DNA of 64,000 nt, taken from the NCBI RefSeq assembly GCF_009931435.1, contig NZ_CP043414.1; one strand, 5' to 3'. Source of the stretch: Escherichia coli. GTDB lineage: Bacteria; Pseudomonadota; Gammaproteobacteria; Enterobacterales; Enterobacteriaceae. A model generated the notes under the pieces. It was not told the origin of the DNA. It ran no database searches and saw only the letters and a list, made by a program, of their open reading frames with translations. The position numbers and the translations under genes were made by a program. Of the stretch, positions 10,401 through 48,039 are shown in pieces; within the stretch, counting starts at the first letter, position 1; every line of letters begins with the position of its first letter.

Positions 10401-12400
10401 CGATTGGTGATTTTAACGGTGAATTGCGCGTCATGGCACAAGCATGGACGGCAGATGATTTCGGTAGCAACGAAAGCAAAGTGGTTGTTGCCGCACCGGT
10501 GATAGCAGAACTGAATATGCCGCGCTTTATGGCCAGCGGTGACACCTCACGTCTGACGCTGGATATCACTAATCTTACCGATAAACCGCAAAAACTGAAC
10601 GTTGCTCTGACCGCCAGTGGCTTGCTTGAACTGGTTAGCGATTCACCCGCAGCCGTTGAATTAGCGCCGGGCGTGCGAACCACGCTGTTTATCCCGGTGC
10701 GAGCATTGCCGGGTTATGGTGATGGTGAAATTCAGGCCACTATTAGCGGGTTAGCGTTACCGGGCGAAACCGCTGCCGATCAGCATAAGCAGTGGAAAAT
10801 GGGTGTCCGTCCGGCATTTCCGGCACAAACCGTCAATTACGGTACGGCGTTGCAGCCTGGTGAGACATGGGCGATTCCAGCTGATGGATTGCAAAACTTC
10901 TCGCCTGTTACGCTGGAAGGGCAATTGTTGTTGAGCGGCAAACCACCGTTGAATATTGCACGTTATATCAAAGAGTTAAAAGCGTATCCGTACGGTTGTC
11001 TGGAGCAAACCGCCAGCGGCCTGTTCCCGTCACTTTACACCAACGCAGCCCAACTGCAGGCGTTGGGAATCAAAGGCGACAGTGATGAGAAGCGCCGTAC
11101 GGCAGTCGATATCGGCATTTCTCGTTTACTGCAAATGCAACGTGATAACGGTGGCTTTGCGCTGTGGGATAAAAACGGTGATGAAGAGTACTGGCTGACG
11201 GCTTACGTGATGGATTTTCTGGTCCGCGCAGGTGAGCAGGGTTACAGCGTGCCGACAGAAGCCATTAACCGGGGGAATGAGCGTCTACTGCGCTATTTAC
11301 AAGATCCGGGCATGATGTCGATTCCGTATGCGGATAATCTCAAAGCCAGTAAATTCGCCGTACAGTCTTACGCTGCGCTGGTGCTGGCCCGTCAGCAAAA
11401 GGCACCGCTGGGTGCGCTGCGTGAAATCTGGGAGCATCGTGCCGATGCTGCGTCTGGATTACCGCTGCTGCAACTTGGCGTTGCGCTGAAAACCATGGGC
11501 GATGCAACGCGTGGTGAAGAAGCGATTGTGCTGGCGCTGAAAACGCCGCGCAATAGTGATGAGCGGATATGGCTGGGTGATTACGGAAGTCCACTGCGCG
11601 ACAACGCATTGATGCTCTCCTTGCTGGAAGAGAACAAATTGCTACCCGATGAGCAGTACCCTCTGCTGAACACACTTTCGCAGCAGGCGTTCGGTGAACG
11701 CTGGTTATCAACTCAGGAAAGTAACGCGCTGTTCCTGGCTGCCCGTACGATTCAGGATTTACCGGGCAAATGGCAGGCGCAAACGTCTTTCTCTGCTGAG
11801 CTGCTGACAGGTGAGAAAGCGCAAACCAGCAATCTGAATAGCGATCAACTTGCCACCTTACAGGTGACCAACAGTGGCGATCAGCCGTTATGGCTGCGTG
11901 TGGATGCCAGCGGATATCCGCAATCCGCCCCTTTACCGGCGAGCAATGTGCTGCAAATCGAGCGCCATATTCTTGGCACTGACGGTAAGAGCAAATCGCT
12001 GGATTCGTTACGTAGCGGCGATCTGGTACTGGTCTGGTTGCAGGTCAAAGCCAGTAACAGCGTGCCGGATGCTTTGGTCGTTGATTTACTGCCTGCTGGC
12101 CTGGAACTGGAAAACCAGAACCTGGCTAACGGCAGCGCCAGCCTGGAGCAAAGTGGTAGCGAAGTGCAAAACCTACTCAGTCAAATGCAACAAGCGAACA
12201 TTAAGCATATTGAGTTTCGTGACGATCGCTTTGTGGCGGCGGTTGCCGTTGATGAATATCAACCAGTCACGCTGGTGTATCTGGCGCGGGCGGTAACGCC
12301 GGGAACATACAATGTTCCGCAACCAATGGTGGAATCGATGTATGTTCCCCACTGGCGGGCGACTGGCGCGGCTGAAGATCTGTTGATTGTCAGACCGTAA
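7433..12400 (+). CDS. yfhM: Alpha-2-macroglobulin family lipoprotein YfhM (ECAM)
   Basis: 1655-aa ORF; lipoprotein signal with lipobox LAGC; intact thioester motif CLEQ (YPYGCLEQTASG, ~10997-11008); stop directly abuts pbpC start. Confidence 0.9.
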   Translation: MKKLRVAACMLMLALAGCDNDNNDNAPTAVKKDAPSEVTKAASSENASSAKLSAPERQKLAQQSAGKALTLLDLSEVQLDGAATLVLTFSIPLDPDQDFSRVIHVVDKKSGKVDGAWELSDNLKELRLRHLEPKRDLIVTIGKEVKALNNATFSKDYEKTITTRDIQPSVGFASRGSLLPGKVIEGLPVMALNVNNVDVNFFRVKPESLPAFISQWEYRNSLANWQSDKLLQMADLVYTGRFDLNPARNTREKLLLPLGDIKPLQQAGVYLAVMNQAGRYDYSNPATLFTLSDIGVSAHRYHNRLDIFTQSLENGAAQQGVEVSLLNEKGQTLTQATSDAQGHVQLENDKNAALLLARKDGQTTLLDLKLPALDLAEFNIAGAPGYNKQFFMFGPRDLYRPGETVILNGLLRDADGKALPDQPIKLDVIKPDGQVLRSVVSQPENGLYHFTWPLDSNAATGMWHIRANTGDNQYRMWDFHVEDFMPERMALNLTGEKTPLTPKDEVKFSVVGYYLYGAPANGNTLQGQLFLRPLREAVSALPGFEFGDIAAENLSRTLDEVQLTLDDKGRGEVSTESQWKETHSPLQVIFQGSLLESGGRPVTRRAEQAIWPADALPGIRPQFASKSVYDYRTDSTVKQPIVDEGSNAAFDIVYSDAQGVKKAVSGLQVRLIRERRDYYWNWSEDEGWQSQFDQKDLIENEQTLDLQADETGKVSFPVEWGAYRLEVKAPNEAVSSVRFWAGYSWQDNSDGSGAVRPDRVTLKLDKASYRPGDTIKLHIAAPTAGKGYAMVESSEGPLWWQEIDVPAQGLDLTIPVDKTWNRHDLYLSTLVVRPGDKSRSATPKRAVGVLHLPLGDENRRLDLALETPAKIRPNQPLTVKIKASNKNGEMPKQVNVLVSAVDSGVLNITDYVTPDPWQAFFGQKRYGADIYDIYGQVIEGQGRLAALRFGGDGDELKRGGKPPVNHVNIVAQQALPVTLNEQGEGTVTLPIGDFNGELRVMAQAWTADDFGSNESKVVVAAPVIAELNMPRFMASGDTSRLTLDITNLTDKPQKLNVALTASGLLELVSDSPAAVELAPGVRTTLFIPVRALPGYGDGEIQATISGLALPGETAADQHKQWKMGVRPAFPAQTVNYGTALQPGETWAIPADGLQNFSPVTLEGQLLLSGKPPLNIARYIKELKAYPYGCLEQTASGLFPSLYTNAAQLQALGIKGDSDEKRRTAVDIGISRLLQMQRDNGGFALWDKNGDEEYWLTAYVMDFLVRAGEQGYSVPTEAINRGNERLLRYLQDPGMMSIPYADNLKASKFAVQSYAALVLARQQKAPLGALREIWEHRADAASGLPLLQLGVALKTMGDATRGEEAIVLALKTPRNSDERIWLGDYGSPLRDNALMLSLLEENKLLPDEQYPLLNTLSQQAFGERWLSTQESNALFLAARTIQDLPGKWQAQTSFSAELLTGEKAQTSNLNSDQLATLQVTNSGDQPLWLRVDASGYPQSAPLPASNVLQIERHILGTDGKSKSLDSLRSGDLVLVWLQVKASNSVPDALVVDLLPAGLELENQNLANGSASLEQSGSEVQNLLSQMQQANIKHIEFRDDRFVAAVAVDEYQPVTLVYLARAVTPGTYNVPQPMVESMYVPHWRATGAAEDLLIVRP

Positions 12401-14713
12401 ATGCCTCGCCTGTTAACCAAACGCGGCTGCTGGATAGCGCTGGCAGCTGCGCCTTTTCTCCTTTTTTTTGCCGCGTGGGGAGCAGATAAACTCTGGCCCC
12501 TGCCATTGCATGAAGTCAATCCCGCACGCGTAGTCGTGGCGCAGGATGGTACGCCACTCTGGCGTTTCGCCGATGCTGAGGGCATCTGGCGCTATCCGGT
12601 AACCATCGAAGATGTCTCTCCGCGTTACCTTGAAGCACTGATCAATTATGAAGATCGCTGGTTCTGGAAGCATCCGGGGGTGAATCCATTCTCGGTGGCG
12701 CGCGCAGCATGGCAAGATCTCACTTCGGGACGGGTTATTTCCGGCGGCAGCACACTCACCATGCAGGTTGCTCGTCTGCTTGATCCTCACCCCAAAACTT
12801 TTGGCGGCAAAATTCGCCAGCTCTGGCGCGCGTTTCAACTGGAATGGCACTTGTCTAAACGTGACATTCTGACCTTGTATCTTAATCGCGCTCCGTTTGG
12901 TGGTACGTTGCAGGGGATCGGTGCGGCAAGTTGGGCATATCTCGGAAAATCGCCTGCGAATTTAAGCTATTCCGAGGCGGCAATGCTGGCGGTGTTACCA
13001 CAAGCGCCCAGCCGACTGCGTCCGGATCGCTGGCCGGAACGTGCCGAGGCCGCACGTAATAAAGTGCTCAATCGGATGGCTGCGCAAGGTGTGTGGTCCC
13101 GTGAGCAGGTAAAAGAATCTAGTGAAGAGCCCATCTGGTTGGCACCCAGACAAATGCCGCAACTGGCACCGCTGTTTTCGCGCATGATGCTCGGTAAAAG
13201 CAAAAGCGACAAAATCGTTACTACGCTGGATGCTGGTTTACAGCGTCGTCTGGAAGAACTGGCGCAAAACTGGAAAGGACGATTGCCACCGCGCAGTTCG
13301 TTGGCAATGATCGTTGTTGATCATACTGATATGAGTGTGCGCGGCTGGATAGGATCGGTTGATCTTAATGATGATTCCCGCTTTGGGCATGTCGATATGG
13401 TCAATGCGATCCGATCGCCGGGATCGGTACTCAAACCGTTTGTTTATGGTCTGGCGCTGGATGAAGGCTTGATCCACCCTGCATCGCTGTTGCAAGACGT
13501 TCCCCGGCGCACTGGTGATTATCGACCAGGCAACTTTGACAGCGGTTTTCATGGCCCGATCAGCATGAGTGAGGCGCTGGTGCGCTCGCTGAATTTACCT
13601 GCTGTGCAGGTGCTGGAAGCCTATGGACCGAAACGGTTTGCGGCAAAGTTACGCAATGTTGGATTGCCGTTATATTTGCCCAACGGTGCTGCACCGAATC
13701 TTTCGCTCATTCTCGGCGGCGCAGGTGCAAAACTGGAGGATATGGCTGCAGCGTATACCGCATTTGCTCGCCACGGTAAGGCGGGTAAGTTGCGCTTACA
13801 GCCGGGGGACCCATTACTTGAGCGACCGTTAATGTCGCCGGGGGCCGCGTGGATTATCCGCCGTATTATGGCAGATGAAGCGCAGCCGCTTCCGGATGGC
13901 GCTTTGCCACGCGTCGTACCACTGGCGTGGAAAACAGGAACCAGTTATGGCTATCGCGATGCATGGGCTATTGGCGTTAACGCTCGTTACGTAATTGGGA
14001 TCTGGACTGGCAGACCGGACGGTACGCCCGTTGTCGGTCAGTTTGGCTTTGCCAGCGCCGTACCGCTGTTGAATCAGGTCAATAATATCTTACTGTCGCG
14101 CAGTGCGAATCTGCCGGAAGACCCGCGTCCTGATTCTGTAAGCCGTGGCGTTATCTGCTGGCCTGGTGGGCAATCATTGCCAGAAGGCGATAGCAATTGC
14201 CGCCGTCGTCTTGCCACCTGGCTGCTCGAAGATAGCCAGCCACCAACATTACTTTTACCGGAGCAAGAAGGAATAAGTGGGATTCGTTTCCCCATCTGGC
14301 TTGATGAGCAAGGCAAACGTGTTGCCGCTGATTGTCCTCAGGCTCGACAAGAAATGATTAATGTCTGGCCATTACCACTTGAACCCTGGCTACCTGCTGC
14401 TGAACGACGAGCAGCGCGCTTACCTGGGGCATCAACAAATTGCCCGCCGTATGGTCGTGATGCTCAGGTACCTTTACAGTTGATTGGTGTGCGTGATGGC
14501 GTAATTATCAAACGTCTGCCAGGAGCTACTGATGCGTCATTACCAGTACAATTAAGCGGAGGAACAGGCGAACGCTGGTGGTTTCTTAATGGTGAACCGT
14601 TAGCTGAACGCGGGCGTAACGTGACTCTGCATTTGACAGAGAAAGGCGATTATCAATTGCTGGTAATGGACGAAATGGGGCAGGTGGCGACAGTGAGATT
14701 TGTCATGCAGTAG
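12401..14713 (+). CDS. pbpC: Penicillin-binding protein 1C (bifunctional glycosyltransferase/transpeptidase)
   Basis: 770-aa ORF starting immediately after the yfhM stop; N-terminal TM segment; glycosyltransferase region RFWKHPGVNP and SXXK-type transpeptidase region. Confidence 0.9.
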   Translation: MPRLLTKRGCWIALAAAPFLLFFAAWGADKLWPLPLHEVNPARVVVAQDGTPLWRFADAEGIWRYPVTIEDVSPRYLEALINYEDRWFWKHPGVNPFSVARAAWQDLTSGRVISGGSTLTMQVARLLDPHPKTFGGKIRQLWRAFQLEWHLSKRDILTLYLNRAPFGGTLQGIGAASWAYLGKSPANLSYSEAAMLAVLPQAPSRLRPDRWPERAEAARNKVLNRMAAQGVWSREQVKESSEEPIWLAPRQMPQLAPLFSRMMLGKSKSDKIVTTLDAGLQRRLEELAQNWKGRLPPRSSLAMIVVDHTDMSVRGWIGSVDLNDDSRFGHVDMVNAIRSPGSVLKPFVYGLALDEGLIHPASLLQDVPRRTGDYRPGNFDSGFHGPISMSEALVRSLNLPAVQVLEAYGPKRFAAKLRNVGLPLYLPNGAAPNLSLILGGAGAKLEDMAAAYTAFARHGKAGKLRLQPGDPLLERPLMSPGAAWIIRRIMADEAQPLPDGALPRVVPLAWKTGTSYGYRDAWAIGVNARYVIGIWTGRPDGTPVVGQFGFASAVPLLNQVNNILLSRSANLPEDPRPDSVSRGVICWPGGQSLPEGDSNCRRRLATWLLEDSQPPTLLLPEQEGISGIRFPIWLDEQGKRVAADCPQARQEMINVWPLPLEPWLPAAERRAARLPGASTNCPPYGRDAQVPLQLIGVRDGVIIKRLPGATDASLPVQLSGGTGERWWFLNGEPLAERGRNVTLHLTEKGDYQLLVMDEMGQVATVRFVMQ

Positions 14714-38880: not shown

Positions 38881-40458
38881 ATGACGGAAAACATTCATAA
38901 GCATCGCATCCTCATTCTGGACTTCGGTTCTCAGTACACCCAACTGGTTGCGCGCCGCGTGCGTGAACTGGGTGTTTACTGCGAACTGTGGGCGTGGGAT
39001 GTGACAGAAGCACAAATTCGTGACTTCAATCCAAGCGGCATTATTCTTTCCGGCGGCCCGGAAAGCACCACCGAAGAAAACAGCCCGCGTGCGCCGCAGT
39101 ATGTCTTTGAAGCAGGCGTACCGGTATTCGGCGTTTGCTATGGTATGCAGACCATGGCAATGCAGTTGGGTGGTCATGTTGAAGCCTCTAACGAACGTGA
39201 ATTTGGCTATGCGCAGGTTGAAGTCGTAAACGACAGCGCACTGGTTCGCGGTATCGAAGATGCTCTGACAGCAGACGGTAAACCTCTGCTCGATGTCTGG
39301 ATGAGCCACGGCGATAAAGTTACCGCTATCCCGTCCGACTTCATCACCGTAGCCAGCACCGAAAGCTGCCCGTTCGCCATCATGGCAAATGAAGAAAAAC
39401 GCTTCTATGGCGTACAGTTCCACCCGGAAGTGACTCATACCCGCCAGGGGATGCGCATGCTGGAGCGTTTTGTGCGTGATATCTGCCAGTGTGAAGCCCT
39501 GTGGACGCCAGCGAAAATTATCGACGATGCAGTAGCCCGTATCCGCGAGCAGGTAGGCGACGATAAAGTGATCCTCGGCCTCTCTGGTGGCGTGGATTCC
39601 TCCGTGACTGCAATGCTGCTGCACCGCGCAATCGGCAAAAACCTGACTTGCGTATTCGTTGACAACGGCCTGCTGCGTCTCAACGAAGCAGAGCAGGTTC
39701 TGGATATGTTTGGCGATCACTTTGGTCTGAACATTGTTCACGTTCCGGCAGAAGATCGCTTCTTGTCAGCGCTGGCTGGTGAAAACGATCCGGAAGCAAA
39801 ACGTAAAATCATCGGTCGCGTTTTCGTTGAAGTATTCGATGAAGAAGCGCTGAAACTGGAAGATGTGAAGTGGCTGGCGCAGGGTACTATCTACCCTGAT
39901 GTTATCGAATCTGCCGCGTCTGCAACCGGTAAAGCTCACGTCATCAAATCTCACCACAACGTGGGCGGCCTGCCGAAAGAGATGAAGATGGGCCTGGTTG
40001 AACCGCTGAAAGAGCTGTTCAAAGACGAAGTGCGTAAAATTGGTCTGGAGCTGGGCCTGCCGTACGACATGCTGTACCGTCACCCGTTCCCGGGACCAGG
40101 GCTTGGCGTTCGTGTGCTGGGCGAAGTGAAGAAAGAGTACTGCGACCTGCTGCGCCGTGCTGATGCCATCTTCATTGAAGAACTGCGTAAAGCGGACCTG
40201 TACGACAAAGTTAGCCAGGCGTTTACCGTGTTCCTGCCGGTACGTTCTGTTGGCGTAATGGGCGATGGTCGTAAATACGACTGGGTTGTGTCTCTGCGTG
40301 CCGTCGAAACCATCGACTTTATGACCGCACACTGGGCACATCTGCCGTACGATTTCCTTGGTCGCGTTTCCAACCGCATTATCAATGAAGTGAACGGTAT
40401 TTCCCGCGTGGTGTATGACATCAGCGGCAAGCCGCCAGCGACTATTGAGTGGGAGTAG
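38881..40458 (+). CDS. guaA: GMP synthase (glutamine-hydrolysing)
   Basis: 525-aa ORF; GATase motif GVCYGMQ; PP-loop SGGVDSSV; C-terminal ...PPATIEWE. Confidence 0.97.
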
Positions 40459-40503
40459 GACTGGCTATAAATAGTAAATTAAGCCTTTCCAACTAACTTT
40501 AAT

Positions 40504-40536
40504 GCCAGTCAGTTTGCTGACTGGCATTTTTTATTG
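40504..40536 (+). terminator. guaA rho-independent terminator (gccagtcagtttgctgactggc then attttttatt)
   Basis: Perfect hairpin plus T-tract 45 nt after guaA stop. Confidence 0.7.
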
Positions 40537-40604
40537 GTTTTTCATTGAGTTTATGACTTCTATTTTTAAGGCCGTAACTCTATAACATCGGCTATGGCCT
40601 AAAG

Positions 40605-40632
40605 ATAAAAGCCATTACCAACAAAATGGCGG
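40605..40632 (-). terminator. Probable minus-strand terminator downstream of the membrane receiver-like gene
   Basis: Minus-strand reading gccattttgttggtaatggc followed by ttttatcttt; lies about 120 nt downstream of the ORF ending at 40753. Confidence 0.45.
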
Positions 40633-40752
40633 TATTCCAAAACAGTCTAGCCGGAAGTGCTTACAATGAGATCGATCAAATCGACAAATGAGATACTGGC
40701 CGTTGTGAGCGCCCGGCAACCGTAGCCGTAGGGGGCGAATTTAATGGCTTTG

Positions 40753-41529
40753 TTATGAGCCATTGGTAATCGCACCCATGACAATTTGAAAGAGTTCTTC
40801 TGCTCGATTAGTGGAGCCAATTGCACCTCTTTCTCTCGCCATTCTCTTGTGCTCTGGTAGATCTGAGGACGCATAGATCATAAAAGGAGTTTTGTCTCCC
40901 ATTGCGCGTAATCTTTCTAGTAAGACATAACCTTCTTGCGCCCCTTCTTTGCGATCCATATCCGAAATAATAGCTGCAAACTTATTTGTTTTTAACAATT
41001 CCAAGGCTTCGTCAGTTGAAAGAGCTAAAGCGAACTCTATTCCCTGTGCCTCAAATGCCTGTCTTTCGTAAACATTATTTTCTGGTCGATCATCCACCCA
41101 TAAAATACGATTTCGCCATTTTTCATGCTTACTCTGCCGTTTTGCATTGGATACAACGTTGACGATTTTTTGCAGTTGGCTTTCAGTGACCCCTGCACTA
41201 TTTTCAGGCTGTTTTGCTGTGGCGGCGGTCAATGATGCTGCTGTAGCTATTTGCGCTCTTAAAAAATTATTTTCATCTTTGAAATCTGACGGCCCGTAAA
41301 GCTTATTATGATGTTTCGCAACAAGCCAGAGAAAGCCAAGAAACACAATGACAGGAAAGAAAACCATGAAATAAATAAGGGGAGCTATATGCTCTGATAA
41401 GCCATTACCAAAGCCAACGACGAAAGAGGCAAATCCATAAACGAGAACAATAAAGAGTGCAATGATACCAAGAGGGCTTTTGGTAAATCCTATTGCAGTT
41501 TCAGCAAATTTCTCTGGTTCCATATCCAT
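40753..41529 (-). CDS. Hypothetical membrane protein: two N-terminal TM helices plus a C-terminal CheY-like receiver-like domain (accessory gene, not in K-12 layout)
   Basis: 258-aa ORF; TM segments GIIALFIVLVYGFASFVVGF and IAPLIYFMVFFPVIVFLGFLWLV; C-terminal REC-like pattern ILWVDDRPENN / AAIISDMDR / TPFMIYASSD / GAIGSTNRAEEL with N/R where the conserved REC Lys is expected; AT-rich codon usage. Confidence 0.7.
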   Translation of the reverse strand: MDMEPEKFAETAIGFTKSPLGIIALFIVLVYGFASFVVGFGNGLSEHIAPLIYFMVFFPVIVFLGFLWLVAKHHNKLYGPSDFKDENNFLRAQIATAASLTAATAKQPENSAGVTESQLQKIVNVVSNAKRQSKHEKWRNRILWVDDRPENNVYERQAFEAQGIEFALALSTDEALELLKTNKFAAIISDMDRKEGAQEGYVLLERLRAMGDKTPFMIYASSDLPEHKRMARERGAIGSTNRAEELFQIVMGAITNGS

Positions 41530-41616
41530 CCTCAGTATTGCTCATAACACAGTTAAGTTGTATTAGATCAGACCTGATCTGACAATTACCGGCTATTTAT
41601 AAAGGTATCTGTCAGA

Positions 41617-42012
41617 TTACATCTGGCTTAAGTTTTTCTCATCCCAGATGTGCTTTCCATCAAGTAACGTTTCCATCGGCGTTCGGCCACTGCACATTTT
41701 TCCCTGATGGGTTCGCTCATTATTATAGTGAACCCGCCATTCATCAAGAACCGATTGTAATGCTTCAAGATCATCATATAACTTTTTGCGGAACGTCACC
41801 TGATAAAACTCGTTCAGTATCGTTTTATGGAACTGCTCGCAGATACTATTGGTCTTAGATGACATTGCTTTCGTTTTCGTATGCTCAATATCATTTATCG
41901 CCAGATAAAGCTGGTAATCATGCTGCTCCACTTTACCGCAATCTCTTGGTGTATTGAGAGGCGGGTTATAAAATAAATACTGATACCATGAGGGCGGATC
42001 AATCGTGGTCAT
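41617..42012 (-). pseudogene. Truncated DDE (rve-type) transposase, C-terminal fragment only: IS remnant
   Basis: 131-aa ORF with integrase-core C-terminal signatures NSICEQFHKTILNEF and WRVHYNNERTHQG...GRTP; upstream DD catalytic region and DNA-binding N-terminus are absent. Confidence 0.6.
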
Positions 42013-42027
42013 AGTATCAGGTCATTC

Positions 42028-43542
42028 TCATGGGTTTATTGCGTCCCTGAAGATGACGTCGCTGACCATCTCTCCTCCAAGAAAATCGATCAACATATTC
42101 GAGTTTTCAAGGTCTTCTCTGGTCAATGCCCCGATTGCTTGTCCAACTACTACCTCCCAAGGTTTTTTACACTCAACAATAGCACAGACGAGTTGGCGGA
42201 TTTTCTTGATCTTCTTGTGACGCAATCGGTCGTTCGATTCCATTAGTTCTGCAATCAACGCTATGTCGGAGTGTGTTTGATTATCCTCAACCCATTTTTT
42301 GGCTGCGTCTACAAATTCCACCCATGTAACATTCATTACTGCAAGGCATGAATCAGTCAAAAGAACATTTTCGATAGCGTAGCATCGTAAGCGATAGCGT
42401 TTAAGAGGTAGGCGATGTTCAAGCGACTTGTTGATTACACCATCGCCATCACGAAGGGAAAAGGCGATTGGATTGTCATAGAGTGTACTAAGGAGGTCTA
42501 CGCAAAAATCCTCAAGTTGACTCTGTTGATCTACGCTACCTGCTAGTACGGGAAAGATTTTTATTCGACCCTGTGATGTTCTGGCCGCTTGTTGCCAGAC
42601 TCGTTCGTCGTCCTCTCCTTCCAAAATTAATGCAGCGTCTTCGCTAAGAGAAAGCGATAGGGGGTGCCCGAAGAATGGTGCAATCTTTCGAAGTTCATCG
42701 CTGGCCGGTATCAATGAGATTTCATTTACTGCAAAGCTCTTCGTGCCGATTGATACATATGGGGAGGCGGCAAGAGAACAGACGAGCGGGGAACTATGGG
42801 TGGATAAGCATATGGCAATACTGTTCGCGTGTGTTCTAAATTCGTCGAGCATACTGATTATCAGCTTGCCCAGTCTAGCTTGGAGGTCGGGGTGCAGATG
42901 TACATCAGGCTCATCGAGGAGGAGTACGTTGAATTTCTCCGGATCTATTGTGTCGAAGAAATAGATGATTTCCGCGGCTAATGCAACCGCTTCCGATTCA
43001 CCGCTACTGATTTGGGCCGGATCAATAATCTGACCATCTACAAGTGATCGAAACTCATAATCGACATTACCCATCTCGAGCGAAATGTTAGTGAGAAGCT
43101 GATTAATTTTACTTAATCGGTCTGTCTGAAAGTTTCGCGTTAGATCAGTTCGAATTTCCGGAGTATTGGCAAGTCGACGTAAGTAAAGCGTCTCGGCCTC
43201 GCGAAATAGCATAGCCGATGCAGCTTTGAAGTTGCTTGCCTGATTAACTGCCCGAGTGTGCCTCAGCCATTCGGGGTTGTCGCTCATATTTGTGAGGACG
43301 GTGCCATCACGCTTGAACGATCCTGCTCGCTCTGGACTTACATACCGGACATAAAATTGCTGCTTGTTCTGGCTGATTGTTTGTTCGATATCGCGAAGGA
43401 AACGACTTTTTCCCGCACCGTTTCGGCCCATAATTATGTTGATGTTGTTTAAGCCGTAAAGTCGGCCAATTTGGCTAGATAACTCGCTTACTTTCAAGAT
43501 TGTAACTCCATTTCTTGTTGCCACATACGGTAACAAATACAC
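42028..43542 (-). CDS. OLD-family-like ATPase-nuclease (ABC-type ATPase fused to TOPRIM-like domain); accessory gene
   Basis: 504-aa ORF with GTG start at 43542; Walker A GRNGAGKS (43405-43428), ABC-signature-like ISSGES, Walker B/D-loop VLLLDEPDVHLHP, H-loop STHS; C-terminal TOPRIM-like LILEGEDDE (~42610-42630) and RDGDG (~42440-42454). Confidence 0.75.
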   Translation of the reverse strand: MYLLPYVATRNGVTILKVSELSSQIGRLYGLNNINIIMGRNGAGKSRFLRDIEQTISQNKQQFYVRYVSPERAGSFKRDGTVLTNMSDNPEWLRHTRAVNQASNFKAASAMLFREAETLYLRRLANTPEIRTDLTRNFQTDRLSKINQLLTNISLEMGNVDYEFRSLVDGQIIDPAQISSGESEAVALAAEIIYFFDTIDPEKFNVLLLDEPDVHLHPDLQARLGKLIISMLDEFRTHANSIAICLSTHSSPLVCSLAASPYVSIGTKSFAVNEISLIPASDELRKIAPFFGHPLSLSLSEDAALILEGEDDERVWQQAARTSQGRIKIFPVLAGSVDQQSQLEDFCVDLLSTLYDNPIAFSLRDGDGVINKSLEHRLPLKRYRLRCYAIENVLLTDSCLAVMNVTWVEFVDAAKKWVEDNQTHSDIALIAELMESNDRLRHKKIKKIRQLVCAIVECKKPWEVVVGQAIGALTREDLENSNMLIDFLGGEMVSDVIFRDAINP

Positions 43543-43573
43543 TAACTGAATAGGTGCGTTGATGCCTCATTTT

Positions 43574-43606
43574 GTTCACATCTATGTTGAAATTAGTGAT
43601 GTGAAC
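43574..43606. promoter_or_regulatory. 9-bp perfect inverted repeat (gttcacatc N15 gatgtgaac) upstream of the ATPase gene: candidate operator
   Basis: Read directly: gttcacatc at 43574-43582 and gatgtgaac at 43598-43606, 32-64 nt upstream of the GTG start at 43542. Confidence 0.35.
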
Positions 43607-43802
43607 GAGCTAAGGACTCTATTAGGAGTAGAGCGGCCATATTGTTCGTCTGAACAGCCTGTAGACAGCTCTATTATTGAGACATGGTATTTTTCGTGGT
43701 ATCTGCTAAGTAGTTTGTTTCAAGGCATTGATTTATTTATATTTTATTTTCTCATTGATAGCTGAGTGGGAATGATTTGATCCCTGCACTATGAATTAGC
43801 AA

Positions 43803-43835
43803 AACCCTCTGTTACTACAGAGGGTTTTTTATACT
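43803..43835. terminator. Hairpin (aaaccctctgttactacagagggtttttt) downstream of yfgI at the right edge of the insertion
   Basis: 10-bp stem with T-run on the plus strand and TTTTGC on the minus strand; 34 nt beyond the yfgI stop. Confidence 0.5.
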
Positions 43836-43868
43836 CACGAATCATAGGATTGAAGTTACTGACATCGC

Positions 43869-44408
43869 TTAGTTAAACCAGCTGTCCGATTTGTTCTCTT
43901 CTGCTTTGCCCACGCTTTTCATCAGATCGCGACCGCCTTCAGTCATATTCCTGTTTGCGTCAGCTTCAGATTGCACCACATCGGTTTGCGCAGCTTTGTG
44001 CTTCAGTTCCTGATCGATAAATTCGTTTTCTCGCTTAACGCGGGCTTCTTCTTTCGCCAGCGCCAGTTTTTGTTTCTGAATCTCTAAGCTGCGTAGCTCA
44101 TCTTCATAACTTTGATCGCGTTTCTTGTCCGCAGTGGCTTCGGCGTCCAGTTTATCCTGACGAGCTTTCTTATTTGCCGCTGCCGTTGCCGCTCTTTTGT
44201 TAGCGGCGGCCTGGGCGTTTGCGCGACGTTGCTTCTCTTGCTGGATTTCCCTGTTGCGCTCCGCGACCCATTCGTCATGCTGCCTTTGCTCTTCATTTTT
44301 ACCTTGCTGTTCCGCTTCTGCGACAGCAGAGAGTTGATCCTGCAATGATGAGGCGATAGCCGGATAGCTTAAGGAGGCTAAGATGGCGCAAAGAAAAACT
44401 TTCTTCAT
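43869..44408 (-). CDS. yfgI: YfgI (secreted/periplasmic coiled-coil protein)
   Basis: 179-aa ORF with signal peptide MKKVFLCAILASLSYPAIA and charged low-complexity body; conserved position relative to yfgH. Confidence 0.8.
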   Translation of the reverse strand: MKKVFLCAILASLSYPAIASSLQDQLSAVAEAEQQGKNEEQRQHDEWVAERNREIQQEKQRRANAQAAANKRAATAAANKKARQDKLDAEATADKKRDQSYEDELRSLEIQKQKLALAKEEARVKRENEFIDQELKHKAAQTDVVQSEADANRNMTEGGRDLMKSVGKAEENKSDSWFN

Positions 44409-44423
44409 GACTCCTCCTGATTA

Positions 44424-44942
44424 TTAGCTCTTTTCAGGACATTTGGTATTTGGCTGAATACGCGTTTCGTTATACGTCGTGGTAATAACAACGGCTAAAC
44501 CTGTCGTAAACTGGCACTCTTTACCCACCTGGGTGGAGGTATACACTTTGGTGCCTTCCTTATACGTTAGAGAAACACCTTCCACTAAGGTTTTATCATT
44601 CACCATAGAACCTGCTGCCGCGCCAACAGCTCCGCCGCCAACTGCACCTGCCGTCGTTCCGGAATTGCTGCCAGACCCCACGTTGTGGCCGATAACACCG
44701 CCAGCGACTGCACCAATAAGCGCGCCGAAGGCTTGTGCGTTTCGTTTATTTTGGGAGTTGTCTACGGCAACTTTTGCGGGAAGAATGGAAATAATATTAA
44801 CGGTTTTAGTTTCTTGTTTGGTATTCAGTTGATCGGTTTGATAAACATCGGCGGCATGATCATCAGCATTTGACTGGCATCCTGCCAGAGTGAATGACGC
44901 TAACATTGCCACAGGCAGAAGACATTTTTTAAATTTCATCAC
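44424..44942 (-). CDS. yfgH: YfgH outer-membrane lipoprotein (glycine-zipper family)
   Basis: 172-aa ORF; lipobox LAGC; glycine-zipper GALIGAVAGGVIGHNVGSG...GAVGGGAVGAAAG. Confidence 0.8.
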   Translation of the reverse strand: MMKFKKCLLPVAMLASFTLAGCQSNADDHAADVYQTDQLNTKQETKTVNIISILPAKVAVDNSQNKRNAQAFGALIGAVAGGVIGHNVGSGSNSGTTAGAVGGGAVGAAAGSMVNDKTLVEGVSLTYKEGTKVYTSTQVGKECQFTTGLAVVITTTYNETRIQPNTKCPEKS

Positions 44943-45252
44943 TATTCCTTGTTATACACATTACGAAAAATAAGACATTTAAGATCATCAAAAGAGGAAA
45001 GTAAATGTATTGCGTATAAAGGAATAGATTAAATTTATTAAAATTCATGTGGAAAATAATTTATAAAAATACATCATTAAAACATATGTATTAATTTTAT
45101 ATTTATTTCGCAGCCAAACAGGATAAACATCAGTCAGGACAAAGACGTAAAATTTAAGATGAAAGAATATCTGCCGCTTTGATAATCTCAAAGAGCAACT
45201 GCATCCGACAGCGAGGTGCCGTTATGTTCAGTGAAGGTGGAGAAGGTAACCG

Positions 45253-45444
45253 CTAACGTTGTACCGGTGATTCGACGGAGAGTGTGGATTGTTGAGCTTC
45301 TTTTTTGCTCTGATGGTGCTGCCAGGCACCGACGGACGAGTAGATAAAGCGGCCAAAGAAGAAGATAAAGCTGATGAGCAGTACGATACGGGTCATGCGA
45401 CTGTTAAATCGGTGTCGTTTTCGCATACTGGTTGCCTGACTCAC
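45253..45444 (-). CDS. yfgG: YfgG small membrane protein
   Basis: 63-aa ORF with one hydrophobic helix (IVLLISFIFFFGRFIY); conserved position between yfgH and pdeF. Confidence 0.65.
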   Translation of the reverse strand: MSQATSMRKRHRFNSRMTRIVLLISFIFFFGRFIYSSVGAWQHHQSKKEAQQSTLSVESPVQR

Positions 45445-45795
45445 AAAAGGTTCCTTGAAGTATGTCCCACGCCGTGGACGGTACTTACATTAAGGCACAA
45501 CAGGACAAAATGGTCAATTCTTCGTTATGTAAAAAAGCGTCAGTGGATACATATTTTAATGTTATGGAAGTTAATTTAATTATTTACAATGATGATGTAA
45601 TAATGATGAATTAACATGATAAACGTAATAATTCATTAATCAGGGTTATTTTGTTTGATATATATCAATTGGAACTTTCATATGACACTTAGAATCAATG
45701 CTCTCTATAGTGATGAATAATCATCATTCGAAGTCAGGTGGGATGCCTGTCTGAATACACCTCCTTCACGATGTGGGGGATTCTGCTGAGCATCT

Positions 45796-48039
45796 ATGAA
45801 ACTGAATGCAACCTATATAAAAATACGTGATAAATGGTGGGGGCTTCCGCTGTTCCTGCCTTCTTTCATCTTGCCCATTTTCGCCCATATTAATACTTTC
45901 GCGCATATTTCTTCCGGTGAGGTTTTTCTCTTTTACCTGCCTTTGGCACTGATGATCAGCATGATGATGTTTTTCAGCTGGGCGGCATTGCCAGGGATCG
46001 CCTTAGGGATTTTTGTCCGCAAATATGCAGAGCTGGGTATTTACGAAACGCTCTCATTAACAGCTAATTTTATTATCATTATCATTCTCTGTTGGGGCGG
46101 TTACAGGGTCTTTACTCCCCGGCGTAACAACGTTTCACATGGTGATACCCGTTTAATTGCCCAGCGTATATTCTGGCAGATTGTATTTCCTGCAACGCTG
46201 TTTCTAATACTTTTCCAATTTGCTGCGTTTGTTGGATTACTGGCGAGCAGAGAAAATCTGGTCGGCGTCATGCCTTTTAACCTCGGGACCTTAATCAATT
46301 ATCAGGCCTTACTGGTGGGCAATCTGATTGGTGTTCCGCTGTGCTACTTCATCATTCGGGTGGTGCGAAATCCGTTTTATTTACGCAGCTATTATTCGCA
46401 ATTAAAACAGCAAGTTGATGTCAAAGTCACCAAAAAAGAGTTCGCGCTCTGGCTACTGGCATTAGGTGCGTTGTTGTTGCTGTTATGCATGCCGTTAAAT
46501 GAAAAAAGCACGATTTTCAGCACCAATTATACCTTGTCATTATTGCTACCCCTGATGATGTGGGGAGCCATGCGCTATGGTTATAAGTTGATTTCGCTGC
46601 TCTGGGCGGTCGTGCTGATGATCAGCATCCACAGCTATCAAAATTACATTCCCATTTATCCTGGCTATACCACGCAACTGACCATAACCTCCTCCAGTTA
46701 TCTGGTATTCTCTTTTATTGTCAATTATATGGTTGTACTGGCAACCCGTCAGCGAGCGGTAGTCAGACGCATTCAGCGGCTTGCGTATGTGGACCCGGTG
46801 GTTCATCTGCCAAATGTTCGCGCCCTGAATCGCGCGTTGCGTGATGCCCCCTGGTCTGCGCTTTGTTATTTACGCATCCCCGGCATGGAAATGCTGGTTA
46901 AGAACTATGGCATCATGCTACGGATTCAATACAAGCAAAAACTTTCTCACTGGCTGTCACCATTGCTGGAACCGGGTGAAGATGTTTATCAGCTTTCGGG
47001 TAACGATCTCGCGCTGCGACTGAATACAGAATCGCACCAGGAGCGCATTACCGCACTGGATAGCCATCTCAAGCAATTTCGTTTCTTTTGGGATGGAATG
47101 CCGATGCAACCGCAGATTGGCGTCAGTTACTGCTATGTGCGCTCGCCAGTGAATCATATCTACTTACTGCTGGGAGAGCTAAATACGGTCGCCGAACTTT
47201 CCATCGTGACCAACGCCCCGGAAAATATGCAGCGTCGCGGGGCAATGTATTTGCAACGCGAATTGAAAGATAAAGTCGCGATGATGAATCGGCTACAGCA
47301 GGCGCTGGAACACAACCATTTTTTCCTGATGGCCCAGCCGATTACCGGTATGCGTGGTGATGTCTACCATGAGATCCTTCTGCGCATGAAAGGTGATAAT
47401 GATGAACTGATCAGCCCCGACAGCTTCTTGCCGGTCGCGCACGAATTTGGTTTATCGTCGAGTATCGACATGTGGGTCATTGAGCATACGCTGCAATTTA
47501 TGGCTGAAAACAGAGCGAAGATGCCCGCTCACCGTTTTGCGATTAATCTGTCGCCAACCTCGGTATGTCAGGCTCGTTTTCCCGTTGAAGTCAGTCAGCT
47601 GCTGGCTAAATACCAGATTGAAGCGTGGCAACTTATTTTTGAAGTCACCGAAAGTAATGCGCTGACCAATGTTAAGCAGGCGCAAATCACCTTGCAGCAT
47701 CTTCAGGAATTAGGCTGCCAGATTGCGATTGATGATTTCGGCACCGGCTACGCCAGCTATGCGCGGCTTAAAAATGTGAATGCCGATCTCCTTAAAATTG
47801 ACGGCAGTTTTATCCGCAATATTGTGTCAAATAGTCTGGATTACCAGATAGTGGCGTCGATTTGTCACCTGGCGCGAATGAAGAAAATGCTGGTAGTGGC
47901 AGAGTACGTTGAAAACGAAGAGATCCGCGAGGCGGTGCTTTCTTTAGGGATAGATTATATGCAGGGTTATCTTATTGGTAAGCCGCAACCGTTAATTGAT
48001 ACGCTGAATGAAATCGAACCCATTCGCGAAAGTGCCTGA
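45796..48039 (+). CDS. pdeF: Cyclic-di-GMP phosphodiesterase PdeF (YfgF): MASE1 membrane domain, degenerate GGDEF, EAL
   Basis: 747-aa ORF; multi-TM N-terminus; no intact GG(D/E)EF (SGNDL at expected place); EAL-domain motifs EVTES and DDFGTGYAS. Confidence 0.85.
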   Translation: MKLNATYIKIRDKWWGLPLFLPSFILPIFAHINTFAHISSGEVFLFYLPLALMISMMMFFSWAALPGIALGIFVRKYAELGIYETLSLTANFIIIIILCWGGYRVFTPRRNNVSHGDTRLIAQRIFWQIVFPATLFLILFQFAAFVGLLASRENLVGVMPFNLGTLINYQALLVGNLIGVPLCYFIIRVVRNPFYLRSYYSQLKQQVDVKVTKKEFALWLLALGALLLLLCMPLNEKSTIFSTNYTLSLLLPLMMWGAMRYGYKLISLLWAVVLMISIHSYQNYIPIYPGYTTQLTITSSSYLVFSFIVNYMVVLATRQRAVVRRIQRLAYVDPVVHLPNVRALNRALRDAPWSALCYLRIPGMEMLVKNYGIMLRIQYKQKLSHWLSPLLEPGEDVYQLSGNDLALRLNTESHQERITALDSHLKQFRFFWDGMPMQPQIGVSYCYVRSPVNHIYLLLGELNTVAELSIVTNAPENMQRRGAMYLQRELKDKVAMMNRLQQALEHNHFFLMAQPITGMRGDVYHEILLRMKGDNDELISPDSFLPVAHEFGLSSSIDMWVIEHTLQFMAENRAKMPAHRFAINLSPTSVCQARFPVEVSQLLAKYQIEAWQLIFEVTESNALTNVKQAQITLQHLQELGCQIAIDDFGTGYASYARLKNVNADLLKIDGSFIRNIVSNSLDYQIVASICHLARMKKMLVVAEYVENEEIREAVLSLGIDYMQGYLIGKPQPLIDTLNEIEPIRESA

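Follow-up and report, generated by a model that had tools for sequence, protein, structure and literature searches.

The AT-rich intergenic regions flanking yfgG of Escherichia coli: a probable divergent control region and a conserved hairpin pair in the pdeF leader

Gene arrangement and base composition of the locus

The locus was analysed within a window of 64,000 nt of an Escherichia coli genome (contig NZ_CP043414.1), to which all positions refer. The gene yfgG, whose product was reported to be important for the tolerance of nickel and cobalt (PMC6338753), is separated from yfgH by a first intergenic region (gap 1) and from the divergently oriented pdeF by a second one (gap 2). The features of the locus are compiled in Table 1.

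Table 1. Features of the yfgH-yfgG-pdeF locus
Feature	Position	Strand	Remarks
yfgH	44424-44942	-	
Gap 1, yfgH-yfgG spacer	44943-45252		310 nt, GC 0.306
Candidate yfgHI promoter	44977-45005	-	-35 TTTACT (45005-45000), 17-nt spacer, -10 TTAAAT (44982-44977)
AT-rich core of gap 1, poorly conserved	45006-45130		from alignment; no recognisable element
Weak AT-rich hairpin 3' of yfgG	45172-45197	-	GCUCUUUGAGAUUAUCAAAGCGGC; in MFE and centroid folds
yfgG	45253-45444	-	63-aa DUF2633 membrane protein
yfgG 5' UTR	45445-45482	-	about 38 nt; SD AAGGAA (45456-45451); CCC...GGG hairpin near the 5' end; conserved blocks
yfgG promoter	45489-45536	-	-10 CTTAAT (45494-45489), -35 TTGACC (45517-45512), A/T block TTTTTTACAT (45536-45527)
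Gap 2, divergent yfgG/pdeF control region	45445-45795		351 nt, GC 0.345
50-aa ORF	45462-45614	+	RefSeq hypothetical protein WP_000017552.1; overlaps the yfgG 5' UTR and promoter on the opposite strand
Conserved blocks between the promoters	45549-45589		ACAT...ATGTTAT (45549-45566) and TATTTACA (45582-45589); per-column information content, 66 distinct spacers
FNR box	45655-45668	+	TTGATATATATCAA; zero mismatches to TTGAT-N4-ATCAA
pdeF -10 hexamer	45690-45695	+	TAGAAT; starts 21 nt after the FNR box; PMC3718329
5'-proximal hairpin of the pdeF leader	45709-45728	+	GUGAUGA-AUAA-UCAUCAU; hairpin kept, sequence varies between genera
Conserved 3' domain of the pdeF leader	45728-45798	+	covariance model R1; includes the near-invariant GAGCAUCU-AUG initiation region
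Leader hairpin A	45735-45749	+	CAGGU-GGGAU-GCCUG; first GGA (45741-45743) in the loop
Leader hairpin B	45760-45779	+	CCUCC-[UUCA(G>C)GAUGU]-GGGGG; position of the second GGA 45769-45771
G-to-C substitution	45769	+	destroys the second GGA (reads CGA)
pdeF (yfgF)	45796-48039	+	anaerobically expressed c-di-GMP phosphodiesterase; PMC3718329

The initial annotation had described both gaps as strongly AT-rich, with lengths of 310 and 351 nt, and its coordinates, gene names and statement on composition were all confirmed, the GC content of the whole window being 0.514. The A/T string quoted there was located at positions 45572-45618 in gap 2. An equally low GC content was found in 0.25% (gap 1) and 0.9% (gap 2) of all 310-nt segments, and each gap contains a particularly AT-rich core, which comprises positions 44943-45130 in gap 1 (188 nt, GC 0.218) and 45541-45700 in gap 2 (160 nt, GC 0.231). 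Other intergenic DNA provides the fairer baseline. An annotated 50-kb segment from a related genome contains 29 gaps that measure 40 nt or more (GC 0.31 to 0.65), among which the two gaps rank second and fifth lowest; they are low in GC but no outliers. Gap 1 differs from its counterpart in strain K-12 at 17 of 310 positions (5.5%) and gap 2 at 3 of 351 (0.85%), which corresponds to an approximately sixfold faster evolution of gap 1 within E. coli.

Gap 1 and the candidates for hidden genes

Among 80 yfgG loci, yfgH and yfgI were detected only in those of Escherichia and in one Pseudocitrobacter MAG; a patchy distribution resembling that of horizontally transferred genes has been reported for yfgHI (PMC11619404). 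Gap 1 occurs only where this cassette is present. Its conservation is confined to the approximately 100 nt adjoining yfgH, in which the sole blocks conserved in every Escherichia clade as well as in the Pseudocitrobacter MAG are a candidate yfgHI promoter, with a predicted transcription start near 44970, and the SD sequence AAGGAA of yfgH at 44950-44945 on the minus strand. The assignment of this putative promoter is based on its sequence and conservation; it was not among the sites returned by the simple promoter scan. The core of gap 1 shows almost no invariant columns, and sequences of the E. albertii type could not be aligned there. Gap 1 may represent lineage-specific DNA that arrived together with the yfgHI cassette, the yfgH-proximal 100 nt of which would carry the yfgHI promoter and the SD sequence while the remainder would be fast-evolving AT-rich filler. 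The hairpin detected 3' of yfgG (z-score -0.05; one compensatory change, in locus L005) is not a canonical intrinsic terminator.

The possibility of unannotated small ORFs, raised in the initial annotation, found no support in either gap. The core region of gap 1 holds or overlaps ORFs of 48, 39 and 27 aa, and a further ORF of 25 aa (45179-45256) lies outside the core. The 48-aa and the 39-aa ORF on the minus strand are interrupted by stop codons in relatives, whereas the 27-aa and the 25-aa ORF on the plus strand are unsupported rather than broken, being intact in K-12, the only genome compared.

The 50-aa ORF of gap 2 is annotated in essentially all RefSeq genomes of E. coli, and its frame is open in E. 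coli, the cryptic Escherichia clades and E. albertii, as would be expected of a real Escherichia-specific small protein. An open frame of 50 codons is furthermore somewhat unlikely at approximately 30% GC (a rough 20-30% chance somewhere in such a gap), and similarly placed ORFs occur in some genomes of Citrobacter, Enterobacter and Leclercia. However, its pN/pS ratio of 0.38-1.0 in four Escherichia comparisons (ignoring values beyond about 70 nt for the E. albertii locus L003, whose contig ends inside the spacer) was indistinguishable from those of out-of-frame and antisense controls, whereas yfgG showed ratios of 0.04-0.29. The residues with the strongest conservation map to DNA blocks that are conserved for other reasons, and these blocks are kept in Klebsiella, Kluyvera, Trabulsiella, Pseudocitrobacter and other genera in which the ORF is missing or shortened. 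Homologs were detected in Escherichia only, no family match reached the threshold, its SD sequence is weak, its promoter would have to lie inside yfgG, and it runs antisense to the promoter and the 5' UTR of that gene. In its shortness, its restriction to one genus, the lack of a family and of purifying selection and the overlap with regulatory elements of a neighbour it resembles spurious small ORF calls, from which it differs in a frame that stays open across several Escherichia species. We consider a real small protein very unlikely and the ORF probably not a gene. The hypothetical protein that RefSeq lists for thousands of E. coli genomes probably stems from a false gene call over the yfgG promoter.

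It appears highly improbable that one or both gaps encode a small RNA that has a promoter and a 3' end of its own, as the initial annotation had also considered. Both gaps are longer than the typical E. coli spacer, AT-rich DNA contains many promoter-like hexamers and a weak conserved hairpin is located 3' of yfgG. However, a permissive Rfam scan of positions 43500-47000 (E <= 10) yielded no real match: the six matches represent eukaryotic or unrelated families at chance level, the best of them reaching 25 bits (threshold 60, E = 1.1). Prediction of promoter and terminator pairs, the suggested check, revealed no pair in either gap, with no terminator-like site in either of them and five promoter-like sites versus 4.1 expected from shuffled sequences, i.e. 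no enrichment. Both AT-rich cores are poorly conserved, that of gap 1 even within Escherichia, and the two mRNA promoters with their leaders account for every conserved block of gap 2. Folding energies were no better than those of shuffled sequence, without any significant z-score in the single-sequence folding of the yfgG 3' region, the yfgG 5' UTR, the pdeF leader and the yfgH 5' UTR.

The divergent control region of yfgG and pdeF

The TTGACC-17-CTTAAT promoter of yfgG has been published from genomic SELEX with sigma70 (PMC3946193). A sigmaS ChIP peak was furthermore reported together with a yfgG start site in the spacer (PMC4447067), which agrees with the position of the -10 hexamer. GGTCAATT and ATTAAGGCACA of this promoter are nearly invariant between genera, and the A/T block upstream of it occupies the position of an UP element and may act as such. 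On the minus strand, this sigma70/sigmaS promoter with its upstream A/T block would drive yfgG through the 38-nt leader. The hairpin in this leader is weak in the single-sequence fold (-5.3 kcal/mol), and covariation is uninformative here because the paired bases never vary.

On the plus strand, transcription of yfgF in E. coli has been reported to depend on FNR and anaerobiosis (PMC3718329; PMC4207228), and its promoter was classified as a class II FNR promoter with the site centred at -41.5 (PMC3718329). The position of the -10 hexamer agrees with this published site, and the transcription start is predicted at approximately 45702-45703. The window contains two matches to the FNR consensus versus 0.06 expected by chance. 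A TTGA-N6-TCA(A/T) box was found in all of the 78 distinct spacers, with a hexamer of the TAnAAT type at a constant distance from it across genera. ORFs starting from the TTG of the box (at about +208 in the spacers) were dismissed as an artefact of the box sequence. In class II FNR promoters, a box centred near -41.5 overlaps the -35 region, and the -10 hexamer follows about 21-22 bp downstream. The perfect box and the reported anaerobic induction are shared with these promoters, and the -10 hexamer TAGAAT lies at the spacing expected for -41.5; this is the known yfgF/pdeF promoter (Lacey et al. 2010, as cited in PMC3718329), and no difference from the class is apparent. It would drive pdeF under anaerobiosis. 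The present analysis adds that all genera examined have retained the box and the -10 hexamer, at a distance of 139-143 bp from the divergent yfgG promoter.

The divergent pair of yfgG and pdeF is conserved in about 25 enterobacterial genera, in most of which the spacer measures 346-356 nt. In 77 of the 78 distinct spacers with an FNR-type box the -35 motif of yfgG was likewise recognised, which allowed the distance between this hexamer and the box to be measured; 70 of these 77 show 139-143 bp. The constraint on the control region is much stronger than would be expected from its composition, the spacing being fixed within about 2 bp across these genera. Between the promoters, the block ACAT...ATGTTAT forms the palindrome ACATTAATTAATGT in other genera. 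By-eye comparison of the central blocks with the consensus sequences of TyrR, ArcA, Fur, NarL, IHF, BasR/PmrA and NsrR gave no convincing agreement, and therefore no regulator is claimed. The spacer was bound by the sigma70 holoenzyme in genomic SELEX, in which it was also marked with an H-NS site (PMC3946193), and BasR shifted a "yfgF promoter" fragment in an EMSA (PMC12419081). Gap 2 most probably represents an ancient, tightly organised divergent control region. The length of the approximately 140 bp of AT-rich DNA between the promoters is conserved more strongly than its sequence, and this stretch probably serves as the platform on which H-NS and further repressors or architectural proteins bind.

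The AT-rich cores may, on the other hand, be spacers without any sequence-specific function whose composition attracts silencing of the H-NS type, including the xenogeneic silencing of the acquired yfgHI genes. We regard this as a possible explanation, though not the probable one. The low sequence conservation of the cores, the H-NS site assigned in vitro to the yfgF-yfgG spacer (PMC3946193), the patchy distribution of yfgHI (PMC11619404) and the faster evolution of gap 1 are consistent with it. However, the core of gap 2 has kept its length within about 2 bp across genera and contains conserved blocks, neither of which can be explained by composition alone. As expected of H-NS-bound DNA both gaps are AT-rich, and the reported site concerns the gap 2 spacer only. 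The scan with the 10-bp high-affinity H-NS motif TCGATAAATT (up to 2 mismatches) was uninformative, giving 74 matches versus 61 expected, with two loose ones in gap 1. Gap 2 shares its AT-richness, the back-to-back promoters and the listed H-NS site with the H-NS-bound type-A divergent spacers, such as csgD-csgB, which are labelled "HNS" in the sigma70 SELEX catalogue. It differs from xenogeneic H-NS targets in being flanked by vertically inherited core genes and in a length conserved across the family; gap 1, located beside the acquired yfgHI cassette, would fit such targets better.

Taken together, both AT-rich gaps most probably consist of transcription-control DNA without hidden genes, gap 2 being the divergent control region and gap 1 being linked to yfgHI. 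This view is based on the coordinates, composition, motif presence, conservation, covariation and absent coding signature observed here. For gap 2, the regulatory role considered in the initial annotation is supported by the perfect FNR box as well as by the literature on FNR dependence, on the binding of sigma70, sigmaS, H-NS and BasR and on the yfgG start site. For Fis, which had been considered there as well, no evidence was found. In the conservation analysis suggested there, the two promoters and the structured pdeF leader emerged as the conserved content; they lie in the flanks of gap 2, where AT-richness is lower, and not in the AT tracts.

The pdeF leader and a possible link to CsrA

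The leader of pdeF has a predicted length of approximately 93 nt. It is predicted to form a hairpin at its 5' end and, downstream of it, the two short hairpins A and B, each with an invariant GGA in its loop. At the place of the 5'-proximal hairpin other genera possess different stems. The hairpin pair is conserved and apparently has not been described before. In hairpin A, 94% of the cells of the alignment were paired and three of six pairs had changed on both sides. All five pairs of hairpin B had done so, its stem variants including ACCC/GGGT, GCCTC/GAGGC, AGCC/GGCT and ACCTTC/GAAGGT. The first GGA was found in 70 of 71 distinct leaders and the second in all 71 leaders of alignment A4, which omits three divergent leaders without the second GGA (two of the Citrobacter youngae type and one of Cedecea). 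The flanks of the GGAs vary while the triplets stay, at a distance of 23-30 nt from each other (mode 26), and the second one is located 25-29 nt 5' of the pdeF start codon.

In an alignment not fitted to the structure, 84% of the cells of the two-hairpin leader were paired versus 32-60% in slid controls. Changes on both sides affected 8 of 11 pairs versus 4.0 in shuffled alignments, and none of 500 shuffles reached 8, a control that related sequences without structure can also exceed; the model-fitted alignment gave the same picture. Each locus gave a single match to covariance model R1, located immediately 5' of pdeF in all cases, and the window contains no other. Single-sequence folding of the leader, in the versions of the window and of K-12, was no better than that of shuffled sequence (z = -0.3 to -0.6), and RNAalifold recovered only three pairs, all of them invariant, from the raw alignment. 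Since this shortfall is due to the misalignment of the variable stems by MAFFT, the method was replaced by explicit pair counts and the covariance model. A mini-uORF in hairpin A (AUG-CCU-GUC-UGA) was rejected, since about 8 of 37 sequences have no AUG there and the Enterobacter group lacks the stop codon.

A 61-mer of the leader is identical to that of K-12 in 5,360 of 5,407 E. coli genomes, and the version of the window has an exact match in none of the 5,407. The substitution G45769C, which is the sole difference from the nearest genome over 1,601 nt, lowers the score of the covariance model from 75.4 to 67.8 bits.

CsrA sites are characterised by a GGA in a hairpin loop, with two sites per dimer, and by similarity to the CsrB repeat CAGGA(U/A/C)G and the SELEX consensus RUACARGGAUGU (PMC7652899). 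In the pdeF leaders counted above both GGAs are located in the loops of short hairpins, with CGA instead at the second site in the window. Loop B of K-12 (CAGGAUG) is an exact CsrB-type repeat and takes the form N-GGA-N with variable flanks in other genera, while loop A, (U/G)GGAUG, lacks the upstream ACA of the SELEX consensus. The spacing of the two sites lies in the range bridged by one CsrA dimer, which Mercante et al. are said to have placed at about 10-63 nt in 2009. No site overlaps the SD sequence or the start codon, the initiation region GAGCAUCUAUG being devoid of GGA, and in this the leader differs from classic CsrA-repressed leaders. The activating or stabilising modes of CsrA, as in flhDC and ymdA, do not need an SD-overlapping site.

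Compared with the CsrA/RsmA leaders of glgC, flhDC, ymdA and dgcT/dgcZ, the pdeF leader shares two loop GGAs in hairpins of 4-6 bp at a distance of 23-30 nt and likewise belongs to a c-di-GMP gene with sites in its 5' leader. Its possible alternative helix occluding the initiation region recalls ymdA, whereas the mutated second GGA sets the leader of the window strain apart. We infer from these features that the GGA hairpins could be binding sites for a CsrA dimer, through which the phosphodiesterase would be subject to post-transcriptional control. Activation by CsrA, achieved by preventing the pairing of GGAUGC (45741-45747) with GCAUCU (45790-45795) beside the AUG, would fit the pro-motility role of the protein. 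As a tentative proposal, the leader would represent an undescribed cis-regulatory RNA of the Enterobacteriaceae in which the CsrA dimer decides on the GGAUGC/GCAUCU pairing and links the Csr system for carbon metabolism and lifestyle to the FNR-controlled anaerobic breakdown of c-di-GMP.

The hairpins may also be real and yet unrelated to CsrA, with GGAUGC/GCAUCU acting as a translational switch (a thermosensor, the target of an sRNA or another RNA-binding protein, or an RNA stability element), which we regard as possible but rather doubtful. In many genera the minimum-energy folds pair UGGAUGCC with GGCAUCUA and sequester the initiation region, the long-range helix GGAUGCC/GGCAUCU is pairable in 79% of the cells versus 27-45% in slid controls, and the spacer between SD sequence and AUG (CAUCU) is unusually conserved. 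However, covariation in this helix equals the shuffle mean, i.e. there is none beyond chance, and the helix was retained only as a possible alternative fold. Three independent G-to-A changes break it while improving hairpin A. In favour of a function unrelated to CsrA, the search for an experimental record of CsrA binding to the leader gave no result, with pdeF/yfgF being absent from the (possibly incomplete) supplementary tables of the papers on CsrA CLIP and transcriptomics in E. coli and Salmonella and of two papers on CsrA binding models. To our knowledge, the CLIP and transcriptomics experiments were not performed anaerobically. Against a function unrelated to CsrA stands the combination of an invariant GGA with variable neighbours, two loops and a dimer-compatible spacing, which is a specific CsrA/RsmA signature. 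A switch and the binding of CsrA would furthermore not contradict each other if it is CsrA that selects one of the two folds.

The AT-rich DNA itself appears to be ordinary, consisting of published FNR and sigma70/sigmaS promoters, sites for nucleoid proteins and fast-evolving filler beside an acquired cassette. The fixed spacing of the promoters points to an unexplored nucleoprotein architecture coupling a gene for nickel and cobalt tolerance to an anaerobic c-di-GMP phosphodiesterase. If CsrA binds the pdeF leader, this phosphodiesterase would be added to the few direct targets of Csr within c-di-GMP signalling, and its anaerobic expression would explain why it was missed by standard aerobic CLIP experiments. 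G45769C would in that case be a natural loss-of-site mutation uncoupling pdeF from Csr control, and as a private SNP in the second GGA it offers a ready-made natural test allele.

Base composition and the yfgHI cassette

The window is a stretch of the E. coli chromosome. The initial annotation had proposed that two strongly AT-rich gaps flanking yfgG might hold small RNAs, small ORFs or H-NS/Fis-bound regulatory DNA. The gaps have exactly the extents claimed, 310 nt between yfgH and yfgG (gap 1, 44943-45252) and 351 nt between yfgG and pdeF (gap 2, 45445-45795), and with a GC content of 0.306 and 0.345, respectively, versus 0.514 in the whole window their strong AT-richness was confirmed. The AT-rich string quoted there maps to 45572-45618, and the AT-richness is concentrated in one core per gap. 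An equally low GC content was found in just 0.25% (gap 1) and 0.9% (gap 2) of 310-nt windows; set against 29 intergenic gaps in an annotated relative, they rank second and fifth lowest, inside the intergenic range. AT-rich DNA as such is ordinary here and largely explained already. A small RNA in the gaps was not supported.

Features of the yfgI-pdeF region
Feature	Position	Strand	Remark
yfgI	43869-44408	-	
yfgH	44424-44942	-	
AT-rich core of gap 1	44943-45130		GC 0.218
Candidate yfgHI promoter	45005..44977	-	TTTACT-17-TTAAAT
Weak AT-rich hairpin	45172-45197		3' of yfgG
yfgG	45253-45444	-	
50-aa ORF	45462-45614	+	RefSeq hypothetical protein
yfgG -10	45494..45489	-	CTTAAT; published promoter
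yfgG -35	45517..45512	-	TTGACC; published promoter
AT-rich core of gap 2	45541-45700		GC 0.231
FNR box of pdeF	45655-45668		published promoter
pdeF -10	45690-45695		TAGAAT; published promoter
5' hairpin of pdeF leader	45709-45728		sequence differs by genus, always a hairpin
Hairpin A of pdeF leader	45735-45749		CAGGU-GGGAU-GCCUG
Hairpin B of pdeF leader	45760-45779		CCUCC-loop-GGGGG
pdeF (yfgF)	45796-48039	+	AUG at 45796

As to conservation, which the initial annotation had named as a check, gap 2 retains blocks across genera and gap 1 is conserved for ~100 nt adjoining yfgH, its remainder being poorly conserved even inside the genus Escherichia. Within E. coli, 17 of 310 positions of gap 1 and 3 of 351 of gap 2 differ from K-12. 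The conserved part of gap 1 contains the SD AAGGAA and the putative yfgHI promoter, so read from its sequence. In relatives, stop codons break up the 48-aa and 39-aa ORFs of the poorly conserved remainder; the 27-aa and 25-aa ORFs of gap 1 are intact in K-12, the sole genome compared for them. No canonical terminator was detected after yfgG in gap 1, and the sole published binding event found for this gap is a weak peak of FlhDC in genomic SELEX (PMC9962212).

Among 80 loci (one genome per species) fetched with an alignment of YfgG homologs, yfgH and yfgI were restricted to Escherichia (L003-L007) and one Pseudocitrobacter MAG (L033); both genes are known from S. Typhi, not S. Typhimurium (PMC11619404). 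Gap 1 thus belongs to a cassette of patchy distribution that has been inserted between yfgG and guaA. The yfgH/yfgI products of the Pseudocitrobacter MAG show ~85% protein identity, far closer than its PdeF (61%), which suggests that the cassette was horizontally transferred along with its promoter.

Between guaA and yfgI sits a ~3.4-kb insert (~40455-43800) with genes for a response regulator, a fragment of an integrase core and an AAA-family ATPase of 504 aa (42028-43542, minus strand). It is missing from the otherwise nearest genome and present in 27 of 5,426 E. coli genomes. In strain KC-Dl-1 its neighbour is a complete prophage, so the insert resembles the remains of a prophage or island and may carry defence cargo. 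The yfhM/pbpC segment (11600-12900) shares just 90-95% identity with 5,407 of 5,425 E. coli genomes, the other 18 reaching 99% or more, whereas the yfgG region (44400-46000) shares 95-99% with nearly all; thus, either the source strain represents a rare lineage or the segment is a recombinant import.

Divergent promoters in the yfgG-pdeF spacer

Regulatory DNA was the option that proved right. For gap 2, published evidence concerns FNR, sigma70, sigmaS, H-NS and BasR. The class II FNR promoter of pdeF comprises TTGAT-N4-ATCAA at -41.5 and the -10 TAGAAT (PMC3718329); in the window its FNR box is a perfect consensus match (chance expectation 0.06 matches). A second perfect FNR consensus, TTGATGAATATCAA at 12249-12262 within the yfhM/pbpC coding region, is probably coincidental. 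Genomic SELEX with the sigma70 holoenzyme lists the spacer, gives the yfgG promoter as TTGACC-17-CTTAAT and marks the spacer as holding an H-NS site (PMC3946193). Furthermore, a sigmaS ChIP-seq peak and a yfgG start site have been assigned to the spacer (PMC4447067), and a “yfgF promoter” fragment was shifted by BasR in EMSA (PMC12419081). The yfgG gene has been reported to be important for Ni/Co tolerance (PMC6338753).

The divergent pair occurs in ~25 enterobacterial genera (80 loci), with a spacer of 346-356 nt in most genera despite PdeF identities down to 52-60%. Based on alignment and per-column information content, the conserved blocks are the SD and the CCC...GGG hairpin of the yfgG 5' UTR, the yfgG -10 (plus-strand ATTAAGGCACA), the yfgG -35 (GGTCAATT, invariant across aligned spacers), an A/T block at the UP-element position of this promoter, two blocks with no regulator assigned (45549-45566 and 45582-45589), the FNR box, the pdeF -10 and most of the pdeF leader. 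In other genera the first of the blocks in 45549-45589 is perfectly palindromic, ACATTAATTAATGT, and the next reads TATTTACA. Since the yfgG -35 and the FNR box are 139-143 bp apart in 70 of 77 distinct spacers, the AT-rich core is under stronger constraint in length than in sequence. The sole large length change among the genera compared is a ~60-nt insertion between the yfgG 5' UTR hairpin and the yfgG -10 in Salmonella enterica subsp. diarizonae/arizonae (L010/L011; spacer 413-415 nt).

The small-ORF option was not borne out in gap 2 either. The annotated 50-aa ORF runs antisense over the promoter and 5' UTR of yfgG, had no family match at threshold and has homologs in Escherichia only, being missing or truncated in most other genera while the underlying DNA blocks are retained. 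Against four Escherichia relatives its pN/pS (0.38-1.0) equalled that of out-of-frame and antisense controls, versus 0.04-0.29 for yfgG; judged by its sequence, the annotated gene is most likely spurious. Databases hold two start models for yfgG, 63 aa from GTG 45444 and 57 aa from ATG 45426, of which the longer is favoured because the N-terminal MSQ(A/T)TS is shared between genera and an SD AAGGAA lies 6 nt upstream of the GTG.

The twin-GGA leader of pdeF

Between a start site that we infer at ~45702 and the AUG, the pdeF leader holds three hairpins, the last of which, hairpin B, is followed by a near-invariant GAGCAUCU-AUG. Pair counts came from 71 distinct leaders, aligned with MAFFT and fitted to no structure: the two-hairpin model left 84% of cells paired versus 32-60% with slid partners, both sides had changed in 8 of 11 pairs (4.0 in shuffles), and the observed covariation score was reached by 0 of 500 shuffles. 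A covariance model made from this alignment matched each locus once, in every case immediately 5' of pdeF, and had a single match in the window (45728-45798); refitting the alignment left the pair counts unchanged. Leaving out three divergent leaders without one or both motifs (two Citrobacter youngae-type, one Cedecea), GGA occupies loop A in 70 and loop B in all 71 leaders with variable flanking bases. The GGAs are spaced 23-30 nt apart, the second 25-29 nt upstream of the AUG.

Between 44400 and 46000, the sole difference from the nearest complete genome is C instead of G at 45769, which changes loop B from CAGGAU to CACGAU and removes this invariant second GGA. The 61-mer around it had an exact match in none of 5,407 E. 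coli genomes, 5,360 of which are identical to K-12 there; the change may be real and specific to the strain, or it may stem from a sequencing error.

By accepted criteria, CsrA sites are marked by GGA in the loop of a short hairpin, one dimer taking two sites (PMC7652899), and the CsrB repeat, CAGGA(U/A/C)G, is equalled by the K-12 loop B, CAGGAUG. No GGA site overlaps the pdeF SD, and pdeF/yfgF is absent from the supplementary tables examined from E. coli and Salmonella CsrA CLIP and transcriptomic studies and from two CsrA binding-model papers. Many minimum-energy folds contain a long-range GGAUGCC/GGCAUCU pairing instead, which would occlude the start region; this helix is pairable in 79% of cells and shows no covariation among pdeF leaders. 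By analogy with ymdA, it may be the state prevented by a bound protein. The twin-GGA leader is apparently the one new element of both gaps, and its two conserved GGA loops together with the CsrB-type loop B of K-12 point to predicted binding of CsrA, by which the pdeF leader would be of the CsrA type.
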